Of a stretch of DNA of 47,149 bases, positions 3,960 to 21,418 are shown piece by piece (position 1 is the first letter of the stretch; the number at the start of each line of letters is the position of its first letter). The notes below the pieces were generated by a model. The model was not told the DNA's origin. It did no database searches and saw only the letters and a program-made list of their open reading frames with translations. The DNA lies in the sequence record PZ445406.1, one strand, 5' to 3'. This DNA comes from a phage. The translations under genes and the position numbers were made by a program.

Positions 3960-3981
3960 GCCCTCTTCGGAGGGCTTTTTT
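3960..3981 (+). terminator. intrinsic terminator after capsid gene
   Basis: GCCCTC-ttcg-GAGGGC hairpin plus T6. Confidence 0.65.
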
Positions 3982-4045
3982 ACGTCTGTACCAAATGGAT
4001 TTGTTGGGTTATAATCACCAAATCAGATAAACAAAGGAGACAAAA

Positions 4046-4291
4046 ATGATTCGCTTAGAACACACTGGCGCCTGCCTAATCGTTTACAAGGGTGAGAAAT
4101 ATTTGCCTGGTGACACTTTCGAGGTTGATGCCATTTGCGACGGTCTTAAGCGTTTAATCGCAGAGGGTAAGCTCACGATTGAGGGTGACGCCAAAACAAC
4201 CAAGCAGATCGCGCAAGAAATTGTTAGCAAGAAAAAGCGCAAAGAACCGAAAACCATCTCCGAGGCTGAGGCTGGCAACGAGTACAAATAA
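4046..4291 (+). CDS. hypothetical small protein with Lys-rich C-terminus
   Basis: AAGGAG SD; bracketed by two hairpin terminators inside the structural operon. Confidence 0.5.
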   Translation: MIRLEHTGACLIVYKGEKYLPGDTFEVDAICDGLKRLIAEGKLTIEGDAKTTKQIAQEIVSKKKRKEPKTISEAEAGNEYK

Positions 4292-4297
4292 CAAACA

Positions 4298-4318
4298 GGG
4301 CGCTTCGGCGTCCTTTAT
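4298..4318 (+). terminator. weak terminator or attenuator
   Basis: GGGCGC-ttcg-GCGTCC hairpin with short interrupted T-run. Confidence 0.35.
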
Positions 4319-4332
4319 TGTATGGAGCTAAT

Positions 4333-4731
4333 ATGAATGATGCAATTTTGGCATTTATGCGATCGCTTGTACCTGCGCTCAAGGCAGTGGATGACGAATC
4401 AATTAATGTGTGGATCGATTTGGCACGTCTCTACGTATGTGAGGGTAAGTTTGGTAATGATGCAGATCGCGCTGTGGGCCTTTATGCACTACACCTGATG
4501 CTTGCTGATGGTGCATTTAAGGGTGAGAGTGAAGGGCTGGAAACATACAGTCGCAGAATGGCAAGTTACGCACTGAGCGGTGAATTCTCTATCACTTATG
4601 ATAACCAGTCGGCAATCCAGGGTGACTTATCATCTTCATCGTGGGGCCGTATGTATAAGGCACTCCTCCGCAAGAAAGGTGGAGGCTTTGGGTTGATTAC
4701 TTCCGCTCGTGGCGGTGGGTGCGGTTGCTGA
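4333..4731 (+). CDS. head-tail connector/adaptor protein (putative)
   Basis: ATG 4333 with GGAG SD (track start 4318 is TTG); synteny after capsid gene. Confidence 0.4.
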   Translation: MNDAILAFMRSLVPALKAVDDESINVWIDLARLYVCEGKFGNDADRAVGLYALHLMLADGAFKGESEGLETYSRRMASYALSGEFSITYDNQSAIQGDLSSSSWGRMYKALLRKKGGGFGLITSARGGGCGC

Positions 4732-5102
4732 TGAACTACAACGAAATCGAATCAATCACTCGCGCTGGCATTAACTTCTTTAGTGATTCTAATGGCGTTT
4801 ACGAGATGAGTACAGGCGCTGGATATGTTGAAGTCGTTAACGGTGTTGAGGTTAATATTCCAGCAAGAATATTCCAGCTAAAGGGCTTGGTGAGAGAAAT
4901 CAAGACGCGCGATATCGATGGCGATTTTATCCAGTTTGGCGATAAGCGTGGAATATTCACAGCTCAGGTGGAAATCAAGCAGGGTTATCAGATCAAAGTT
5001 GATGGCGAGACTTTTGTTGTTGTTGACCCGCGCCCCGTTAAACCAACAGGTACAGTGGTTGGTTATAGACCAATCCTTCGTAGGGTGGCTACTTATGGCT
5101 AG
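4731..5102 (+). CDS. head-tail joining protein (putative)
   Basis: ATG overlaps upstream stop (translational coupling); synteny. Confidence 0.4.
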   Translation: MNYNEIESITRAGINFFSDSNGVYEMSTGAGYVEVVNGVEVNIPARIFQLKGLVREIKTRDIDGDFIQFGDKRGIFTAQVEIKQGYQIKVDGETFVVVDPRPVKPTGTVVGYRPILRRVATYG

Positions 5103-5532
5103 AAATATTGGAAGCGTGGCTACCTTTGAGAAATCTATTGCTGACTGGATTGACAGGGCTGATAAAGGTTTCGATATTGTAGTGGCTAATACTGTCATTA
5201 AGACAGCTAACGCAATTGTAGACCTTTCCCCTGTCGACACAGGTAGGTTCAAAGCTAACTGGCAAATCACCGCAAATTCACCAGCCCAGCAATCATTGAA
5301 TGAGTACGATCAGACTGGTGGGCAGACGAAAACATATCTCGCCAGACAGGCTAGGGCAGTCGCCAACTCAAAAGCCACTAGTGTTATTTATATCACCAAC
5401 CGACTTGATTACGCAGCAGACCTTGAGTACGGGGCTTCAAATCAGGCTCCGGCTGGCGTTCTTGGTGTGGTGCAAGCAAGGTTGGGCAGGTATTTCCAGG
5501 AAGCGGTAGAGGAGGCTCGTCGTGCAATATGA
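5095..5532 (+). CDS. HK97 gp10-like neck/tail component (putative)
   Basis: ATG 5095 overlaps upstream stop; track ORF 4918 extends upstream in same frame; synteny. Confidence 0.4.
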   Translation: MARNIGSVATFEKSIADWIDRADKGFDIVVANTVIKTANAIVDLSPVDTGRFKANWQITANSPAQQSLNEYDQTGGQTKTYLARQARAVANSKATSVIYITNRLDYAADLEYGASNQAPAGVLGVVQARLGRYFQEAVEEARRAI

Positions 5533-5923
5533 ATTATCATTAGCAGCAAGGAAATTCGTCAACGATTTGTTGGTAAATGAATTTCCGGTCAGGTATCCAG
5601 TTGCGTGGGAGAATGCTGCATTCACTCCTCCGGCTGATGGCTCAATCTGGCTTAAGTACGACTACACAGAAGCTGACACGGTAACCTATGGCCTGAGCAG
5701 GAAGTGCAAATACTACTTAGGCATGGTCCAGATTTCTGTTTTCTTCAGCCCGGGCACTGGAGTTGATAAGCCTAGGCAAATCGCTAATCAATTGGCAGAA
5801 TCTATCGTTGATGGTACAATGCTTGACAGCGGGACCATTTATGAGTCTGGAGTTGTTAACCCGGTTATCAAATCCAAATCTGGGTGGTTTATCCCGGTTC
5901 GTTTTTATGTTCGTCTAGACTAA
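5522..5923 (+). CDS. tail terminator/completion protein (putative)
   Basis: GTG start with GGAGG SD 8 nt upstream; overlaps upstream stop; directly precedes major tail gene. Confidence 0.4.
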   Translation: MQYELSLAARKFVNDLLVNEFPVRYPVAWENAAFTPPADGSIWLKYDYTEADTVTYGLSRKCKYYLGMVQISVFFSPGTGVDKPRQIANQLAESIVDGTMLDSGTIYESGVVNPVIKSKSGWFIPVRFYVRLD

Positions 5924-6627: not shown

Positions 6628-6671
6628 CATAGCACTTTTTGATAAAGCGTTAATTCAATCTTCCTGTATAG
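6628..6671 (+). promoter_or_regulatory. phage-type promoter module
   Basis: ATAGCAC-N4-TTGATA, 22-bp spacer, TATAGT; leader CATCTAAACGAAA follows. Confidence 0.5.
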
Positions 6672-13104: not shown

Positions 13105-13657
13105 TATTAAGTTAGGCCTATCTCTAGGCCGAAAGTTTGGCAAGATTCACCAAATGGCTGTGAGTAGCGTGCCAGAGGCAATGAGAGCACTTTGTTCTCA
13201 GATCCCAGCCTTCAAGGAGTTCATGAATAGCCATGTAGGTCAAAACACAAGGTACGCCGTGTTCGTTGATGGTAAAAATGTGAACGAGCATCGAATCTCT
13301 GATTTTAGCGCCGTTCAGGAGATACGCATCTTACCAATTCCCCAGGGTCGTAAGTCTGGCGGTTTGTTTCAGACAATTTTAGGTGCCGCTCTTATCACGG
13401 TTGGCATCTTTACTGGTCAGATTTATCTTGTTGGCGCTGGTGTGTCTTTAGCTGCTGGTGGTATTGCGCAATTACTTTCACCACAAGCAACAGGATTAAA
13501 GACTCAGGACAACAAAACAAGCAACAGAGCATCTTACGCATTTGGTTCAGCTGTGAACACGGTGGCTGCTGGTTATCCAATCTGTCTCCCGTATGGCTAT
13601 AGAACGGTTGGCGGTTCTGTGTTTAGTGCCGGCAGTTATTCCGAAGACATTGCTTAA
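13085..13657 (+). CDS. tail assembly protein I (lambda gpI-like)
   Basis: Overlaps K stop; hydrophobic Gly-rich C-terminal segment; synteny. Confidence 0.7.
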   Translation: MTQKLIDIKLGLSLGRKFGKIHQMAVSSVPEAMRALCSQIPAFKEFMNSHVGQNTRYAVFVDGKNVNEHRISDFSAVQEIRILPIPQGRKSGGLFQTILGAALITVGIFTGQIYLVGAGVSLAAGGIAQLLSPQATGLKTQDNKTSNRASYAFGSAVNTVAAGYPICLPYGYRTVGGSVFSAGSYSEDIA

Positions 13658-13664
13658 ATATCAT

Positions 13665-13687
13665 ACCCGCCTAGTGCGGGTTTTTTA
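13665..13687 (+). terminator. intrinsic terminator before J
   Basis: ACCCGC-ctagt-GCGGGT hairpin plus T6. Confidence 0.55.
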
Positions 13688-13698
13688 TTTAGTGTAGA

Positions 13699-16600
13699 AT
13701 GGCACAAATGATCAAAACAAACGTGAGGCTTTGTGATATGGCTGAAGAGATTAAGATTTATGGTGCTAAAGGCGGTAGCCAGAAGCAGCATCAACCAGTG
13801 GAGCAGGAAGATAACCTTATTTCACTTAACAAGGTTAAGGTATTGCTTGCGGTTGCTGACGGAGAGGTGGATCCAAACTTCTCAATGAAGGATTTATACC
13901 TTGCTGACGTTCCGGTGCAAAACCAGGATGGTAGCTACAACTACGAAGGTGTTCGCGCTGAGTTCCGTGCTGGCACGCAGTATCAGGACTATATCGCTGG
14001 CCTTGATGGTGCAAACTCAGAGATTCAGGCATCCAGAGAAATCACGAACGATACCCCGTATATCATCGCGGTTAACAATACTCAGCTATCAGCAATTCGA
14101 GTTAAGCTATTTTGGCCTCGACTAGTTAAGCAAGAAAGTAACGGCGACCTGAACGGTACGACATGTGAGTATGCAATTGACCTATCTGTTAATGGTGGAG
14201 TATATCAGGAATACACTCGCGGAGTTGCTAACGGTAAGACAACTACAGGTTACGACCGCAGCATTCGTGTCAACCTTCCGGCAGAGTTTGATAGCGCACT
14301 GGTTCGAATCCGTAAGATTACGCCAGACTCAACTAGTAGCACGCTGGTCAACGGAATGCAGATTACAACCTATCAGGAAGTAATCGACGCTAAATTCCGC
14401 TATCCGCTTACCGCCCTGGTTTATGTTGAGTTTGGCTCTGACTTGTTCCCTAACGGAATCCCAACAATTTCTATAAAGAAGCGCTGGAAGTTGATTCAGG
14501 TACCGACAAACTACGACCCGGAGACGAGAACTTACAGCGGGACATGGAATGGACTGTTCAAAATGGCATGGTCAAACAACCCAGCTTGGGTTCTTTATGA
14601 CTTAGTGACAAACCGCCGATATGGTCTTGACCAGCGAGAACTAGGTGTAGAGATTGATAAGTGGGGTCTTTACGAGGCTGCGCAATTCTGCGACCAGATG
14701 GTGCCGGATGGTAAGGGTGGTTTAGAGCCTCGTTATCTTTGCGATATGGTTGTACAGAACAAGGTTGAGGCCTACACGCTAATTCGTGATATCTGTTCAA
14801 TCTTCCGTGGTCTGACTTTCTATGATGGAGAAAAGATTGGCATCGTAGTTGATAAGCCTCGTAATCCATCATACATCTTCACGAATGATAACGTTGTAAA
14901 CGGATTGTTCAGCCGCACCTTTGCCAGTGATAAGAGTCTTTACACCACTGCAAACGTTCAGTTTGATGATGTTGAGAACAACTATCAGCAGGATGTTGAG
15001 CCAGTTTTTGAACTCGAGGCTACTCGAAGATTTGGCTTTAACCCTGTTGACCTCACGGCTATTGGCTGTACTCGCAGAAGTGAGGCAAACAGGCGCGGCA
15101 GGTGGCTCCTAAAAACCAACCTGAGAAGCGAAACTATCAGCTTCACTACCGGGTTGGAAGGTATGATTCCGATGGTTGGCGAGGTAATTGCGGTCAATGA
15201 CGCTGCATGGTCGAGCAACTATCAGTTAAACCTTTCTGGTCGCATTGAATCAGTTCAGGGATTGCAGGTTTTCACCCCTTTTAAAGTTGACGCAGCGCCT
15301 GGTGACAGAATTCTTCTGAACAAGCCAGACGGAAGTCCAGAGGCAAGAACTATTGCCAGCGTTTCGGAGGATGGAAGAACAATCAACCTTAACACTGCTT
15401 TTAGTTTTGTAGCTCAACCTGACACTGTTTTCGCAATCGATAAGGATAATATCGCGCTTCAACAGTATGTTGTGACCGGGATTCAAAAAGCAGACTCTGA
15501 TGGTTCGGATTCATTTCAGTATACGATTACAGCAGTAGAGTATGACCCGAACAAGTATGACGAGATTGACTACGGGGTTAACATTGTTGACCGTCCAACT
15601 TCAATTGTGGAACCTGACAGATTGTCGCCGCCCGAGAACTTAACAGTATCAAGCTACAGTAAGGTTGTTCAGGGTTTGTCGGTTGAGACGATGGTTATCG
15701 GATGGGATAAAGCGCCATACGCTAAAACATACAATGTTCAGTGGAGAAAAGAAAATGGCAACTGGATTAACGTACCCAGAACAGCAAGTACAGAGGTTGA
15801 TATTGAGGGCATTTACGCAGGAATCTATGACGTTAGGGTTCGCAGCGTATCAGATACTGAAAACGTATCTGCCTGGTCTGACATTGTAACGGTATCGCTA
15901 ACTGGCAAGATTGGTCGCCCATCTGCGCCTACGGTTATCACGGCTTCAACTGATGAGGTATTTGGAATTCGTGTTAAGTGGGGTTTCCCTGAAGGATCCG
16001 GTGACACTGCTTACACTGAACTTCAGCAGGTCGCTGATAATGGTGACGGCACTTACAATCCTGATAACGCAAGTTTGCTTACGTTACTGCCGTACCCAGC
16101 ATATGAATACTGGCACACGCCAATTCAGCCAGGAAAGGTTATCTGGTATCGCGCTAGATTGATCGACAGAATAGGTAATACCTCTGATTGGTCTGACTTT
16201 GCTAGAGGTATGAGCACTGACGATGCCAACATCATCAACGATTACATCAAAGTTGATATTGAAGGCTCAGAAGGATTCAAATATCTCGAGCAGAATGCGA
16301 TTCAAAAGAATCAGGACATTCAGAATCAAGCTGAGGCAATTATCGAGAACGCATTAGCTAATGACACTGATGTTCGTCGCATGACTAAGGAGAACGGAAA
16401 ACGTAAGGCTGAATATGTTCAGGCAGTGAATCTCATAGCTGATGAAACTCAGGCGCGTGTGGAGGCTCTCACGGCCCTTAAAGCACAGATAGATGATGAG
16501 ATTGTTGGTCAGATTACGACTATTGAAACGGCGCTGGCTACAGAGACTGAAGCTAGAGCTACGGCTGACACTCAGCTATCAGCAAGGATTGGTGATAACG

Positions 16601-17109
16601 AGGCGGCGCTAAACCAGAAGCTAGACGCTTTTGCTAACGCTGAGTCAACTGGAGTTCAGTATGGGATTAGTTTGGGCCTTAACTATAATGGTCAGACTTA
16701 TTCATCCGGCATGAGCATGGAGCTAGTTGGTACTGGTGGTAATGTTCGTAGTCAGTTCATCTTTGACGCAAACAGATTCGCTATCAGTAACGGTATTGGT
16801 TCTGGTTCCGGTCAGTGGCAGCTGCCCTTTGTTGTCGAGAACGGAAACGTAATCATCCAGAGCGCAGTAATCGGTGACGGTTCAATCAGTAACGCTAAGA
16901 TTGGTAACTTTATTCAGTCTAACAACTACGTAGCAGGAACTACAGGTTGGAGGATTGATAAGTCTGGAAACGCCGAGATTCACGGAAGGCTGTACGCCAA
17001 CAGTGGGGAGTTCGCTTTTAATGGAACAAACAACACAGTACAGATTAACGGTAACGGAATCACAGTAAACTTACCTGGAGGTGGAAGAGTTGTGGTAGGT
17101 ACGTTCTAA
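13699..17109 (+). CDS. central tail fiber / host specificity protein J
   Basis: 1136 aa; blocks such as IQVPTNYDPETRTYSGTWNG match lambda J from memory; alternative ATG at 13738 has better SD. Confidence 0.85.
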   Translation: MAQMIKTNVRLCDMAEEIKIYGAKGGSQKQHQPVEQEDNLISLNKVKVLLAVADGEVDPNFSMKDLYLADVPVQNQDGSYNYEGVRAEFRAGTQYQDYIAGLDGANSEIQASREITNDTPYIIAVNNTQLSAIRVKLFWPRLVKQESNGDLNGTTCEYAIDLSVNGGVYQEYTRGVANGKTTTGYDRSIRVNLPAEFDSALVRIRKITPDSTSSTLVNGMQITTYQEVIDAKFRYPLTALVYVEFGSDLFPNGIPTISIKKRWKLIQVPTNYDPETRTYSGTWNGLFKMAWSNNPAWVLYDLVTNRRYGLDQRELGVEIDKWGLYEAAQFCDQMVPDGKGGLEPRYLCDMVVQNKVEAYTLIRDICSIFRGLTFYDGEKIGIVVDKPRNPSYIFTNDNVVNGLFSRTFASDKSLYTTANVQFDDVENNYQQDVEPVFELEATRRFGFNPVDLTAIGCTRRSEANRRGRWLLKTNLRSETISFTTGLEGMIPMVGEVIAVNDAAWSSNYQLNLSGRIESVQGLQVFTPFKVDAAPGDRILLNKPDGSPEARTIASVSEDGRTINLNTAFSFVAQPDTVFAIDKDNIALQQYVVTGIQKADSDGSDSFQYTITAVEYDPNKYDEIDYGVNIVDRPTSIVEPDRLSPPENLTVSSYSKVVQGLSVETMVIGWDKAPYAKTYNVQWRKENGNWINVPRTASTEVDIEGIYAGIYDVRVRSVSDTENVSAWSDIVTVSLTGKIGRPSAPTVITASTDEVFGIRVKWGFPEGSGDTAYTELQQVADNGDGTYNPDNASLLTLLPYPAYEYWHTPIQPGKVIWYRARLIDRIGNTSDWSDFARGMSTDDANIINDYIKVDIEGSEGFKYLEQNAIQKNQDIQNQAEAIIENALANDTDVRRMTKENGKRKAEYVQAVNLIADETQARVEALTALKAQIDDEIVGQITTIETALATETEARATADTQLSARIGDNEAALNQKLDAFANAESTGVQYGISLGLNYNGQTYSSGMSMELVGTGGNVRSQFIFDANRFAISNGIGSGSGQWQLPFVVENGNVIIQSAVIGDGSISNAKIGNFIQSNNYVAGTTGWRIDKSGNAEIHGRLYANSGEFAFNGTNNTVQINGNGITVNLPGGGRVVVGTF

Positions 17110-17111
17110 AA

Positions 17112-17135
17112 TAAAAGCCCCGAAAGGGGCTTTGT
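17112..17135. terminator. bidirectional terminator between convergent genes
   Basis: AAAGCCCC-gaaa-GGGGCTTT with A-run upstream and T-run downstream. Confidence 0.6.
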
Positions 17136-17137
17136 CT

Positions 17138-18073
17138 TTAATACATGTCTGGAAGGTAAGGCAATGGAGTGGATATTGTTACGTCAGGTCTGTTTCCAAT
17201 CTCATATCTTACAATCCTTGATCCAGTTCCCGATCGAACATAACCATTACTCATTACGATTCCTTTGTTTCTTAACTCCTTGTAAGCTGGAATTGCCCTG
17301 GTGTTAAATCCGCATCTTAATATTGGGAAGTAGGATTCGCCAATATACTGATTGCTACCTGATAGGTTTATGAATCCAGAAACAACCAACGGCCTTGTAA
17401 CGGTTGATAAAGTGCAAACACCATTAGAGTTAAATATGTTCAATCCGGGTCCTGGTATTGGCGCAACCATCTGAAAAATAATCAAGTCCATAGTGACACT
17501 TCCAGGAGTGTCTCCAGTATCTTCAGTGTTTATGTTTGTGCATATCAGTTGATTGCTCCCGTTGTATTCAACCGAGACGCCGGAGTTATTCCACTTTCCA
17601 AATGGTATCCCATAAATTGGCAGCGTGTATGTGTTGGTGAAAGATATCCTCTGAGCAAACTTGCACACCAACAACCTGTCAGTGGTGGTTATCGAAGTAA
17701 AATCTGTGCTATTGGCAACATAAATACCCTGACCAGTAGATGCTCTTAGTACCTCAACAACAGTACCAGAAAATTGAGTTATACGGTCAGAATATCCATT
17801 CTTATAGCCAATCGATATTGTTCCGCTTGATGCTGTTGATGAGAATCCATTTATGTAGTAAACCTCAACGCCCCTATCAAGTTCGAATGAGTAGGCACCA
17901 TTATTAGGGATTAGGAACCTTGACGCTCCTTCATTACCCTGGATTGAAAAAGTTTTGCTAAATCCACCACTAGAAACGTTGAAGTTGCCAGCAAAGTTCA
18001 AGGCACGCATCCCTGCGGTTATTGTCATTGGCTTTCTTCCGTCATTGAGGTCTATATAAATACCTTGAGCCAT
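17138..18073 (-). CDS. hypothetical beta-rich Gly/Ser/Asn-rich protein (possible receptor-binding or tail-associated)
   Basis: ATG 18073 with AAGGAG SD (track start 18082 is GTG); convergent with J across a bidirectional terminator. Confidence 0.5.
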   Translation of the reverse strand: MAQGIYIDLNDGRKPMTITAGMRALNFAGNFNVSSGGFSKTFSIQGNEGASRFLIPNNGAYSFELDRGVEVYYINGFSSTASSGTISIGYKNGYSDRITQFSGTVVEVLRASTGQGIYVANSTDFTSITTTDRLLVCKFAQRISFTNTYTLPIYGIPFGKWNNSGVSVEYNGSNQLICTNINTEDTGDTPGSVTMDLIIFQMVAPIPGPGLNIFNSNGVCTLSTVTRPLVVSGFINLSGSNQYIGESYFPILRCGFNTRAIPAYKELRNKGIVMSNGYVRSGTGSRIVRYEIGNRPDVTISTPLPYLPDMY

Positions 18074-18303
18074 TAATTCCACTCCTTAGAACCATAATCA
18101 CGAACGGACCCACTGGAGCCTTTAATTCCATCGTAGCGAATATCAATTTCACCAGCCGGAACAATTACGCCGCTTTTCCATTTAGCTACGCACACTCCGT
18201 TTGAGGATGTAGCGCACCAACCATCTGGGCGAGGACCAGATGAGCAGCCTACCATCATGATTGCTGCTGCGGAGATGATTACTGATTTGATGAAGTTATT
18301 CAT
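18073..18303 (-). CDS. small lipoprotein (candidate Cor/Llp-like superinfection exclusion protein)
   Basis: ATG 18303 with AAGGA SD; signal peptide ending in lipobox MVGC; about 76 aa; own phage-type promoter. Confidence 0.5.
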
Positions 18304-18342
18304 TTTTAAGTCCTTATTAAGTTTTCTCGTTTCGATGTGGTA

Positions 18343-18386
18343 ATGATAACTCATCCCTGCGGATTGTCTTTAGCAATTCGTGCTAT
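18343..18386 (-). promoter_or_regulatory. phage-type promoter module (drives lipoprotein gene)
   Basis: Minus strand ATAGCACGAATTGCTA, 22-bp spacer, TATCAT, leader CCACATCGAAACGAG. Confidence 0.5.
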
Positions 18387-19059
18387 TTGCAATGAAAACC
18401 GCCCTTGCGAATCCTCTCGGTGTAAGACTGCGGACTACCTTCGTTTTCTTACTCTTACCGCCTAGCTTCTTGTATTGGTCTGAGAATCCGTCATTAACAG
18501 GCACGGGAATAGCATCAGGCCATTTAAACCCATTGCCAGACCAAATACATGTCTTCTTAGGATATGCGTCGCGAGGCTTTATTAGGTCGCTAAAAAACGG
18601 GTGTAAATCATCTTCCGGCAAATAGCCTCCGTATTCGTAAGGGTGGAAAGTGTTATCAGGCTTTCGCCAAAGTGATGAAAGTACGCTTATCGGGTTCTCA
18701 ATCATGTATGGCACTTGGTACTTATTAGCCAGGTTAAAGGCAACTTTACACGCTTCAGCAGCTTCAATTTGGAAATTGGGGTTAGCAAGGCGCTTGCGCT
18801 CAAAGTGTCTTGACCCGCTCACCGCTAAATCCGTACAGGGCGGGAATGCCAAAATGAAATCAGGCTTCACATTAAAATCGAAGTCAGCATCTATCCATGC
18901 GTTAACATAGGTGATGTTGTGATGCTCAACCTTTGCATTTAAGTCACCGTAGCTCCCATGGTCAGAATCATCAAAGTTGAAACAGTAGCAAGTGTGACCA
19001 GCTTCAGCCCAATCTTTCACCGCAAGACCAGAGCCATCAAATAAAGACCAGATAACCAT
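18370..19059 (-). CDS. DNA cytosine-C5 methyltransferase-like protein
   Basis: Motif I-like LFDGSG, motif IV-like FPPCT, motif VI-like ENP; GAGAGGA SD. Confidence 0.45.
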   Translation of the reverse strand: MVIWSLFDGSGLAVKDWAEAGHTCYCFNFDDSDHGSYGDLNAKVEHHNITYVNAWIDADFDFNVKPDFILAFPPCTDLAVSGSRHFERKRLANPNFQIEAAEACKVAFNLANKYQVPYMIENPISVLSSLWRKPDNTFHPYEYGGYLPEDDLHPFFSDLIKPRDAYPKKTCIWSGNGFKWPDAIPVPVNDGFSDQYKKLGGKSKKTKVVRSLTPRGFARAVFIANSTNC

Positions 19060-19442
19060 TTTACAATCCTCTCTCGTTGTTTGTGCGACTAACTATACCA
19101 GGTTTTGCGTCTGAGTTTTAGCTATTCGTGCTATTGCATACACGTAACAGATGTAACTTGATGTATACAATCTAATCCGCGGAAAATGATATACGCCAAG
19201 TTACGCATGGTTACGCTATATTTACATTAAAATATCTATATATATCAACCATTTACTCTTATTATTATTATTATATATATTACTGTGTATATCATGTAAC
19301 TACCTCTATAGAGTGTTCCGGTTGCAATTTTAATATCATGTGGATTTATACAGTGTTGCACGGTGCTATACCAATGCACCCTCAGCAATAAATGATATAC
19401 ACGATATACACACTAGTTACATTGAGCTATAGCTGATCTGAG
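19060..19442. repeat. AT-rich divergent control region A with iterons and (TTA)5 microsatellite
   Basis: No credible ORF; tandem GATATACAC x2 at 19394-19411; (TTA)5 at 19259-19273; 19-mer ATATCTATATATATCAACC at 19232-19250 shared with region B. Confidence 0.6.
19092..19134 (-). promoter_or_regulatory. phage-type promoter module (leftward from region A)
   Basis: Minus strand ATAGCACGAATAGCTA, 21-22 bp spacer, TATAGT. Confidence 0.5.
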
Positions 19443-19787
19443 GTGCCAGAAAACGTAACTAGTGGCAATGCATACATGGAATTACAAGAATTCACACGTA
19501 AACTTAATAAATTGATAGGCACAAACGATTGGATTCCAGCAAGCCACGCGGATATAGTTAACCCATCGAAAGCAAGCAACCAAATAGATACGAAAATGGG
19601 AAAGAAAATAGATAGATACTCAGCTCACACCGTAATACTACCCAGCTATGCTCCGGTTTTTATTGGTGTAACTTACGAAGTGGCTCTTAGATTATGCGAG
19701 TCATCATATGGTAAAGACTGGAAAAACAAATCAATTAGAATAGAGAAGACAACTAGAGAACATATCAAAATCATCGCGGGGGTATAA
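19443..19787 (+). CDS. hypothetical protein
   Basis: First ORF rightward of control region A; start ambiguous (GTG 19443 or ATG 19476). Confidence 0.4.
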   Translation: MPENVTSGNAYMELQEFTRKLNKLIGTNDWIPASHADIVNPSKASNQIDTKMGKKIDRYSAHTVILPSYAPVFIGVTYEVALRLCESSYGKDWKNKSIRIEKTTREHIKIIAGV

Positions 19788-19788
19788 A

Positions 19789-19983
19789 ATGACTTACTAC
19801 ATTATCAAAGAGAAAAACAACGCGTTGTTCGGAGACTGCTACTTTGGCGGCCCAGCTGGATACACCACAGATAAGAACGAGGCCGACAGATTCGAGACTA
19901 AAGAAGAGGCTAGAGATGTACTGACCGGGTACTTCACTGAAGAAGATTTGAAGTCTGTTAAAGTTGTTAAAGTGAAGGAATAG
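19789..19983 (+). CDS. hypothetical protein
   Basis: 64-aa ORF, tightly packed. Confidence 0.45.
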   Translation: MTYYIIKEKNNALFGDCYFGGPAGYTTDKNEADRFETKEEARDVLTGYFTEEDLKSVKVVKVKE

Positions 19984-20953: not shown

Positions 20954-21418
20954 ATGAACAAAGATTGCTGGCAGACTCCTTTAGAGTTATTTAAACCAAT
21001 AGATGAAAAATACAACTTCGAGGTTGACGTATGTGCCAGTCCAGAGAACGCGCTTTGTGAATACTTCTGGACCGTAGATGATGACTGCTTGCAACAGGAT
21101 TGGGGTGATGATGGCGGTTTCGTTTGGTGTAATCCACCATATAGCAATCCATTACCATTTGTTGAAAAGTGCCAGCAATACGGATATGCAGTCATGCTAT
21201 TGAATCAGGATACGTCAACAAAATGGGCTAAGATAGTCTTTGAAAAAGCATCAAAGGTTATACTTTTATCAGACAGGGTTAGATTTATAAATCCAGTAAC
21301 ACTTGAGGTTGGCAAGTCAAACCCAAAATGCCAGATGATTGTTGTTTTCGACAAGAGCAGTAATACTGGTGTTGATATACGCTGGTGCTCAATAAAAGAA
21401 ATTCATAAGCACATATAA
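20954..21418 (+). CDS. dam: DNA N6-adenine methyltransferase (phage Dam family)
   Basis: WQTP N-terminal motif and catalytic NPPY. Confidence 0.75.
   Translation: MNKDCWQTPLELFKPIDEKYNFEVDVCASPENALCEYFWTVDDDCLQQDWGDDGGFVWCNPPYSNPLPFVEKCQQYGYAVMLLNQDTSTKWAKIVFEKASKVILLSDRVRFINPVTLEVGKSNPKCQMIVVFDKSSNTGVDIRWCSIKEIHKHI

Follow-up and report, generated by a model that had tools for sequence, protein, structure and literature searches.

Two leftward modules downstream of J in Escherichia phage JeanPiccard: a probable LptD recognition and exclusion pair and a separate, minimal methyltransferase gene

What do three leftward genes do that face the structural operon of a phage, and do they belong together? 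The question arises at positions 17138 to 19059 of a 47,149-bp stretch of phage DNA (the window, by which we mean the whole of it). According to the ORF list, these positions are filled by three minus-strand open reading frames (ORFs), coding for a cytosine methyltransferase-like protein, a lipoprotein, and a protein described as beta-rich in an earlier reading of the same DNA. That reading, the original prediction, took the three as a single accessory cassette in which a short C5-methyltransferase, together with a second methyltransferase encoded nearby, would protect the phage against restriction. The genes are present as it claimed and run opposite to the structural operon. We propose, nevertheless, that the segment very probably consists of two independent leftward modules, an LptD host-recognition and exclusion pair and a single-gene methyltransferase cassette, which share a terminator with the tail gene J.

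Megablast against a phage collection identified window positions 16900 to 19500 as 100% identical to MZ501080.1, the record of Escherichia phage JeanPiccard, which is BASEL phage Bas02 (Drexlerviridae, Braunvirinae). The JeanPiccard genome, at 47,149 bp, has the same length as the window; the two are permuted relative to each other, with window position 16900 falling at record position 19492. In GenBank, bas02_0024 and bas02_0025 are hypothetical, and bas02_0026 is a "Dcm-like C5 cytosine methyltransferase." The region can be described as an already known LptD module beside an independently acquired, already annotated methyltransferase gene.

A probable receptor-binding protein for LptD

The product that had been called beta-rich, bas02_0024, is predicted to be an LptD-specific receptor-binding protein, a virion component that sets host recognition. 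Its gene occupies positions 17138 to 18073 on the minus strand. The longest frame (17138 to 18082) would give 314 amino acids (aa) from a GTG, and the real start is the ATG at 18073 behind AAGGAG, which gives 311 aa. The 311-aa protein scores 397 bits against the Pfam family DUF6453 (cut-off 25), is 79% identical to Rtp44 of phage Rtp, which is of equal length, and by tblastn shares 88% identity with its counterpart gene in TheodorHerzl (Bas14), a phage also linked to LptD (Maffei et al., PLoS Biol 2021). Structural evidence comes from the PDB, in which chain 9RPT_C matches with an E value of 2.8e-40 (query residues 4 to 314 on chain residues 1 to 321), and 9RPW and 9RQI match as well. Chain 9RPT_C is the receptor-binding protein of Oekolampad (Bas18), solved by cryo-electron microscopy on the extracellular face of open-state LptDE (Dunbar et al., PNAS 2025). 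The proteins of Oekolampad are much more distant from those of JeanPiccard than Rtp's are.

Genetic work on Bas02 concerns the same receptor. Deletion mutants gave no receptor assignment, and spontaneously resistant E. coli carried lptD mutations; LptD is entered as the terminal receptor of Bas02 in the S5 table of that study (Maffei et al., PLoS Biol 2021). Resistant LptD variants include deletions of Y658-Y678 and of L394-Y396. The same authors defined a "bona fide RBP locus" downstream of gpJ as the determinant of receptor specificity in small siphoviruses, and they placed the dedicated receptor-binding proteins of these phages at the distal end of J. A 2025 paper predicts LptD dependence from the same ORF family to which the 311-aa protein belongs, and a 2026 preprint presents an AlphaFold3 prediction in which a Bas02 receptor-binding protein is bound to LptD.

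The presumed docking partner is a 1,136-aa J-like tail-tip protein, encoded on the plus strand at 13699 to 17109 (an ORF named "J-like tail tip protein" in GenBank). Its gene converges with the leftward genes, as the original prediction had stated, and the two are separated by a hairpin at 17114 to 17133, readable on both strands, with an 8-bp stem (5 GC pairs) and T-runs on either side; the hairpin scores as an intrinsic terminator in both directions. On the mechanism that we propose, the receptor-binding protein would sit at the tip of the J-like central fibre and bind the extracellular loops of LptD, the lipopolysaccharide translocon, which would lead to commitment to DNA injection.

By annotation, the tail module also includes a putative homing endonuclease gene (bas02_0018, record positions 13303 to 13779). 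Rtp has an HNH endonuclease gene, rtp40, in the same tail module but at another position.

A predicted superinfection-exclusion lipoprotein and its pairing

The lipoprotein gene, bas02_0025, lies at 18073 to 18303 on the minus strand, directly upstream of the gene for its cognate receptor-binding protein, and the pair lies downstream of J. The longest frame here (18073 to 18354) has 93 aa, but translation really begins at the ATG at 18303, preceded by AAGGA, and yields a 76-aa precursor as in GenBank, with a lipobox (MVGC) and a mature form of about 57 aa. The precursor scores 123 bits against PF24052 (cut-off 27), matches PDB chain 9RPS_D with an E value of 5e-42, and shows 84% end-to-end identity with Rtp45, a protein of the same length. 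The lipobox region is identical to that of Rtp45, and the conserved C30-x7-C38 arrangement matches the Cys30-Cys38 disulfide of Rtp45. Besides PF24052 and phrog_4281, searches of Pfam and PHROG returned only a sub-threshold match, to PF08450 SGL (E 0.045).

Rtp45 has been solved on the periplasmic side of LptDE(M) (9RPS), where its hairpin rises in the LptD lumen and shifts extracellular loops 4 and 5, such that the receptor-binding protein is blocked; it is 35% identical to the exclusion lipoprotein of Oekolampad (Dunbar et al., PNAS 2025). By homology, the 76-aa lipoprotein is predicted to be the cognate superinfection-exclusion factor for LptD. After export and lipidation at Cys20, the protein would be delivered to the outer membrane on its periplasmic face. 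In that position it would bind LptD from below and insert its hairpin into the barrel lumen, displacing loops 4 and 5 and leaving later receptor-binding proteins unable to bind. Superinfection exclusion would be one outcome of blocking LptD in this way, and protection of progeny from cell debris would be another.

Several observations tie the two genes together. The ATG of the receptor-binding gene overlaps the stop of the lipoprotein gene by 1 nucleotide (nt; TAATG), an overlap kept in Rtp, AugustePiccard, and vB_EcoS-12210III, and because the genes overlap by one base, the two proteins are probably made together. Homologues were counted in 342 phage records for the receptor-binding gene and in 361 for the lipoprotein gene, and they adjoin in all of the genomes checked (IME542, mEp021, Gluttony, Rtp, AugustePiccard, and 12210III). 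The closest known system is rtp44/rtp45 of Rtp, which shares the position just downstream of J, the convergent orientation, the gene order, the 1-nt overlap, the lengths of 311 and 76 aa, and the receptor LptD. The two systems differ in that JeanPiccard has a methyltransferase cassette upstream of the pair, which Rtp lacks, and in that the JeanPiccard proteins are known from sequence.

Homologues of the Rtp45-type lipoprotein, 40 to 48% identical, were also seen in phiEco32-like podoviruses of about 70 to 80 kb, including NC_010324.1 (phiEco32, positions 66110 to 66313), NC_070991.1, NC_070992.1, and others. These phages were absent among the listed matches to the siphovirus receptor-binding protein. 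To judge from this homology, phiEco32-like phages may block or use LptD too.

A methyltransferase gene in a variable slot

Comparison with relatives indicates how the methyltransferase gene stands to the pair. The leftward unit of Rtp consists of rtp45 and rtp44 only, and an alignment of Rtp runs from the shared control region to a single 19-nt motif and on through a -10-like hexamer and a leader into rtp45. In JeanPiccard, the motif occurs twice, at a spacing of 748 bp, and the methyltransferase gene lies in between; relative to Rtp, this arrangement is a clean 748-bp insertion. Other genes are found in the same slot in other relatives. In vB_EcoS-12210III, whose receptor-binding protein is 96% identical, the slot (positions 3980 to 4958 of locus L006) contains a helix-turn-helix gene and a Rha-like gene; in AugustePiccard (positions 4736 to 5902 of locus L007), it contains a Rha-like gene, two small ORFs, and a Dcm-like gene. 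Also, the Dcm-like gene is far from the receptor-binding locus in KarlJaspers, mEp021, and Lzu_P3. The interval that separates the control region from the exclusion/receptor-binding pair is a site for variable cassettes, and it is empty in Rtp.

Two alternative accounts of the pair were considered. One is the original prediction itself, that the three genes form one accessory or moron cassette for DNA modification and anti-restriction, with the lipoprotein and the beta-rich protein as helpers of the methyltransferase. The common orientation of the genes, their position between the control region and a single terminator, and the Dam-type methyltransferase nearby would fit such a cassette. However, the two supposed helpers are close homologues of a solved receptor-binding and exclusion pair, the pair stands alone in Rtp, unrelated genes fill the slot in 12210III, and the methyltransferase gene is located elsewhere in KarlJaspers (about 20 kb from the receptor-binding locus), mEp021, and Lzu_P3; the comparative data contradict a single cassette, which we regard as very improbable. 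The other account keeps the pair but assigns the lipoprotein another role, either in blocking FhuA, as Cor and Llp do, or as an accessory to lysis, for instance an o-spanin. A small outer-membrane lipoprotein beside a receptor-binding gene is exactly what is found with T5 Llp and T1 Cor, and T5 pb5/Llp and T1 Cor share with the JeanPiccard pair the general plan of a receptor-binding protein plus a small periplasm-facing lipoprotein that attaches to that receptor on the inner side and changes its extracellular loops. Nevertheless, the sequences are unrelated, and the receptor is FhuA, a TonB-dependent transporter, rather than LptD; Rtp45 works through a hairpin in the LptD lumen, whereas Llp and Cor act by reverse allostery via the plug domain. 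Considering that the JeanPiccard lipoprotein has Rtp45, solved bound to LptDE(M), as its close full-length homologue, that Bas02 uses LptD and not FhuA, and that significant family matches are limited to PF24052 and phrog_4281, with no sequence membership in Cor or Llp, this assignment is equally hard to credit.

A probable, minimal C5-methyltransferase

The remaining gene, bas02_0026 (18370 to 19059, minus strand), encodes a short Dcm-like C5 cytosine DNA methyltransferase of 229 aa. The original prediction had noted its C5-methyltransferase-like motifs and the sequence PPCT, which we find as F72-P73-P74-C75-T76. The protein belongs to a large family: PHROG 757 matches it with an E value of 4e-84, and at E values up to 0.001, the family comprises 4,512 clusters at 90% identity and 1,247 at 50% identity. 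Of 50,697 phage records, 1,528 (about 3%) carry a homologue, among them Drexlerviridae, Klebsiella siphoviruses, large myoviruses (rV5-like and others), and phages that infect Campylobacter, Vibrio, or Roseobacter. Because nearly all members are 210 to 260 aa long, the short length is the norm of the family and not a sign of truncation.

Conserved residues were analyzed in 32 aligned members. Motif I, for S-adenosylmethionine binding (F7-D-G9-S10-G11, with F7, G9, S10, and G11 invariant), motif IV, with the cysteine nucleophile (P73-P74-C75-T76-D77), and motif VI, whose glutamate protonates N3 of cytosine (E121-N122-P123), are all present and invariant, as are T170, W173, L199-G-G-K202, and R210-S-L..R215-G. 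In the motif VIII region, K168 is invariant and is followed by K169-T170 and a strand at residues 170 to 175 of the model, without a QxRxR sequence. About 36 residues (174 to 209) separate K168-W173 from the conserved R210-S-L-T-P-R-G block, and no sizeable target-recognition domain was found; because this interval between the motif VIII strand and the C-terminal block is so short, a classical target-recognition domain is essentially missing. An AlphaFold2 model (pLDDT 89.3, pTM 0.88) has C5-methyltransferases as its closest solved folds, DNMT3B first; the catalytic domains of DNMT3A and DNMT3B have the same Rossmann-type core. The non-methyltransferase fold that the original prediction had named as the contrary case was thus not seen. 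This placement within the PDB came only from fold comparison, because sequence searches gave no match.

The threonine after the catalytic cysteine, in place of the usual glutamine, had been noted in the original prediction. It is invariant across the family and is no sign of inactivity. DNMT3 enzymes have a non-glutamine residue after the catalytic cysteine (PCN) and a small target-recognition domain. Because they too lack the glutamine, the substitution is no argument against activity.

The possibility that the protein is an orthologue of E. coli Dcm, a C5-cytosine methyltransferase with a PC catalytic motif that recognizes CCWGG, was considered and rejected, as motif IV alone aligns and the phage protein is half the size (229 versus 472 aa). 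Because only 25 columns around motif IV align, "Dcm-like" describes the chemistry of the protein, not orthology or shared specificity.

Functional evidence comes from a homologue in KarlJaspers (Bas06). The 711-bp Dcm-like gene of that phage lies among early genes, and its product, which is of the same PHROG family and similarly short (236 versus 229 aa), shows 60% end-to-end identity with its JeanPiccard counterpart. In a study of K42, a KarlJaspers-like phage, four of four escapers of retron Ec86 had lesions in or just upstream of the 711-bp gene, which was toxic when expressed solely with the retron present (10.1101/2023.08.16.553469). Mass spectrometry coupled to liquid chromatography (LC-MS) detected 5-methylcytosine (5mC) on the multicopy single-stranded DNA (msDNA) of the retron with the wild-type K42 enzyme but not with a C82A/E128A/K175A/K176A mutant (10.1101/2023.08.16.553469). 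Residues C82, E128, K175, and K176 of the KarlJaspers protein align with C75, E121, K168, and K169 of the 229-aa protein.

Taken with the motifs and the fold, this homology suggests that the 229-aa protein is a genuine but minimal C5-methyltransferase, one that most likely methylates C5 of cytosine in phage and host DNA. A contrary view is that it makes no 5mC in DNA at all, and that it transfers another group (e.g., carboxymethyl from Cx-SAM), acts on RNA or tRNA like Dnmt2, or is an inactive DNA-binding relic. The near-absence of a target-recognition domain and the Pfam score under threshold speak for this view. We consider it improbable. An inactive relic would hardly keep its S-adenosylmethionine-binding and catalytic motifs unchanged throughout a family that numbers over 1,200 clusters at 50% identity, and 5mC depends on active-site residues in the 60%-identical homologue.

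Promoter-like units and the control region

The original prediction placed phage-type promoters in the control region as drivers of all three genes. A generic sigma-70 scan found 7 promoter-like sites against 7.9 expected and, because there is no enrichment, does not support special promoters. What was found instead are two promoter-like units, each composed of a 19-nt motif and a -10-like hexamer, so that this part of the claim stands in a changed form: there appear to be two units, not one run-through from the control region. The motif was detected only through alignment with relatives. Unit P1 (19092 to 19135, minus strand), before the methyltransferase gene, has the variant AATAGCACGAATAGCTAAA (19135 to 19117), which is part of repeat D3 in the repeat analysis, followed after 19 nt by TATAGT (19097 to 19092). 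Unit P2 (18343 to 18387, minus strand), before the lipoprotein/receptor-binding pair, has AATAGCACGAATTGCTAAA (18387 to 18369), followed after 20 nt by TATCAT (18348 to 18343). The P2 motif doubles as the final six codons plus stop of the methyltransferase gene. In Rtp, the homologue of P2 is the lone motif that precedes rtp45, together with its -10-like hexamer and leader. Because the insertion is bounded by two motif copies, each module has a promoter-like unit of its own.

The motif recurs throughout the genome. AATAGCACGAATTGCTAAA has 13 copies at up to 3 mismatches (0 are expected for a longer, 23-nt version), and at up to 5 mismatches, there are 23 matches to the 19-nt motif versus 2.5 in shuffled sequence, 17 of them with TAnnnT (usually TATAGT or TATAAT) 19 to 22 nt downstream. 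On both strands, motif copies start at 6628, 10638, 18369, 19117, 21418, 27036, 29537, 29863, 30691, 32605, 36058, 36841, 37992, 39710, 40237, 41054, 41687, 42616, and 45060. About 17 to 19 copies follow a common plan of AATAGCAC-N3-TTG(C/T)TAAA, about 20 nt, TAnnnT, and then often a conserved leader CATCGAAACGA with a Shine-Dalgarno sequence and ATG behind it. Wherever copies were examined, the motif has the orientation of the downstream gene, and several copies supply the stop of the upstream gene (TAG at motif positions 3 to 5 or TAA at 16 to 18). The motif contains an imperfect dyad, TAGCA-N5-TGCTA, centred near -42, and we take it to be a putative binding site for a transcription factor. 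A reading of the 19-mer as an RNA hairpin (UAGCA...UGCUA) was rejected, as variant copies break the stem without compensating changes.

Beyond JeanPiccard, the motif is present in KarlJaspers (6 copies), Rtp, AugustePiccard, and 12210III. In IMG/VR, at least 120 contig stretches contain the exact 19-mer, almost all from T1-sized contigs (42 to 53 kb). A search of the searchable literature for ATAGCACGAATTGC returned no paper with the motif, with the reservation that the Rtp (PMC1367250) or T1 genome paper may describe it.

The control region itself (19136 to 19442) is divergent, AT-rich, and noncoding. It is 88 to 90% identical to its counterparts in Rtp, 12210III, and AugustePiccard, which makes it as conserved as the neighbouring genes, and its AT-rich core is nearly invariant. 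Three GCGTAAC-like repeats and a (TAA)n run lie within it, as do inverted repeats (I3, I9, and I10), including 19153 to 19167 with 19190 to 19204 and 19281 to 19298 with 19398 to 19415. Rfam gave no match in 16900 to 19800 at E values up to 1, and a structured RNA in the control region is not supported because the sequence folds only weakly better than shuffled sequence (z -1.9 and -1.8 for the two strands). On the far side of the region, two small rightward ORFs (114 and 64 aa, window 19443 to 19983) both match phrog_35664, at profile positions 29 to 85 and 80 to 143, and look like one ancestral gene that was split or is read as two ORFs.

The anti-restriction question

The second methyltransferase of the original prediction is present. 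A 154-aa Dam-type N6-adenine methyltransferase is encoded at 20954 to 21418 on the plus strand (PF05869, E 3.4e-39; "putative N6 adenine methyltransferase" in GenBank). An anti-restriction role for methyltransferase in this phage is a conjecture. Bas02 was strongly restricted by six of the six restriction-modification systems tried, and possession of methyltransferase genes showed no link with resistance to restriction (Maffei et al., PLoS Biol 2021). In the BASEL raw data of the same authors, its efficiency of plating was about 1e-5 with EcoKI, about 2e-3 with EcoCFT_I, 1e-5 to 1e-4 with EcoCFT_II, 1e-6 to 1e-5 with EcoPI, and below detection with EcoRI and EcoRV. These data leave room for protection against enzymes whose sites the methyltransferase modifies. 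The BASEL 2025 paper does not mention Dcm-like genes.

Site frequencies were counted across the whole genome and compared with dinucleotide-preserving shuffles. GATC is strongly under-represented, at 63 sites versus 170 +/- 11 expected (z -9.9), despite the encoded Dam-type methyltransferase. GGWCC and GGCC are depleted (z about -4), and CCWGG is over-represented, at 88 sites versus 60 expected (z +4). These frequencies offer no usable clue to the specificity of the methyltransferase.

It is conceivable that the 229-aa protein is an active C5-methyltransferase selected mainly to evade restriction at its own sites, for example by EcoRII-like enzymes, and that retron Ec86 is the counter-measure of the host. 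Presence of the family in so many phage records and lineages suggests that strong selection favours it, a role against restriction had been proposed earlier for the methyltransferases of Drexlerviridae, the K42 enzyme is sensed by a defence system, and CCWGG is not avoided in the genome. Against this explanation stand the missing correlation between methyltransferase genes and restriction resistance; the sensitivity of Bas02 to all six systems, though none of these is known to be blocked by 5mC; and the Dcm that E. coli already has, which would make a CCWGG-specific enzyme largely redundant in a dcm-plus host. We treat selection for evasion as a serious contender, while leaning somewhat against it.

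Strength of the two-module interpretation

The proposal of two modules draws on evidence of different kinds. Homology, fold, motif conservation, and the insertion architecture come from this analysis, whereas the LptD receptor of Bas02, the structures of the homologues, and the 5mC activity of a homologue come from the literature. Expression timing, promoter function, and the specificity and benefit of the methyltransferase are what we infer from these.

Several points weigh against the interpretation. All functional evidence for the JeanPiccard proteins comes from homologues (at 60 to 84% identity, or with E values of about 1e-40). The Pfam check that had been suggested for all three proteins placed two of them above threshold (DUF6453 and PF24052), but the 229-aa protein scores 15.3 bits against PF00145, for which the gathering threshold is 22, and the match covers residues 3 to 90 only. 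A precomputed PF00145 match exists for 3 of the 120 homologues listed, and no NCBIfam model matches any of the three proteins. Searches of the PDB with the 229-aa protein, as a single sequence or as a 32-sequence profile, gave no match at E values up to 10, and the profile alignment with E. coli Dcm (hhalign) has a probability of 1%. The near-absence of a target-recognition domain counts in the same direction, and the 5mC evidence from K42 is that of a preprint, obtained by LC-MS on msDNA and with the CCWGG site assumed from E. coli Dcm (10.1101/2023.08.16.553469). As for transcription, the TTGCTA in the motif is no normal -35 element, because at 22 nt from the -10-like hexamer it is too far away, and the promoter function of the 19-nt units is a putative one, read from sequence.

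A more specific, joint proposal would make the 229-aa enzyme the representative of a class of C5-methyltransferases with a recognition region of about 36 residues and, at the same time, a cassette made mobile by the 19-nt motif. DNA recognition would then fall to a conserved, family-specific loop (residues 139 to 166), to DNMT3-like oligomerization, or to both, giving a short or degenerate target other than CCWGG. Recombination at repeated copies of the Drexlerviridae-wide motif AATAGCACGAATTGCTAAA would mobilize the gene within Braunvirinae, and the motif could be the operator of a phage-encoded class-II-type transcription factor. We put this combination forward tentatively and think it rather unlikely to hold as a whole.

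Conclusions

Separating the pair from the methyltransferase allows two genes that are hypothetical in GenBank to be named apart from it: bas02_0024 as an LptD-binding receptor-binding protein and bas02_0025 as a superinfection-exclusion lipoprotein. Because LptD is an essential, conserved outer-membrane protein, LptD modules are of interest for phage engineering and steering, as has already been argued in the literature. The neighbouring gene carries a different meaning for the phages that have it, in that a methyltransferase of the 229-aa type can betray them to retron Ec86.

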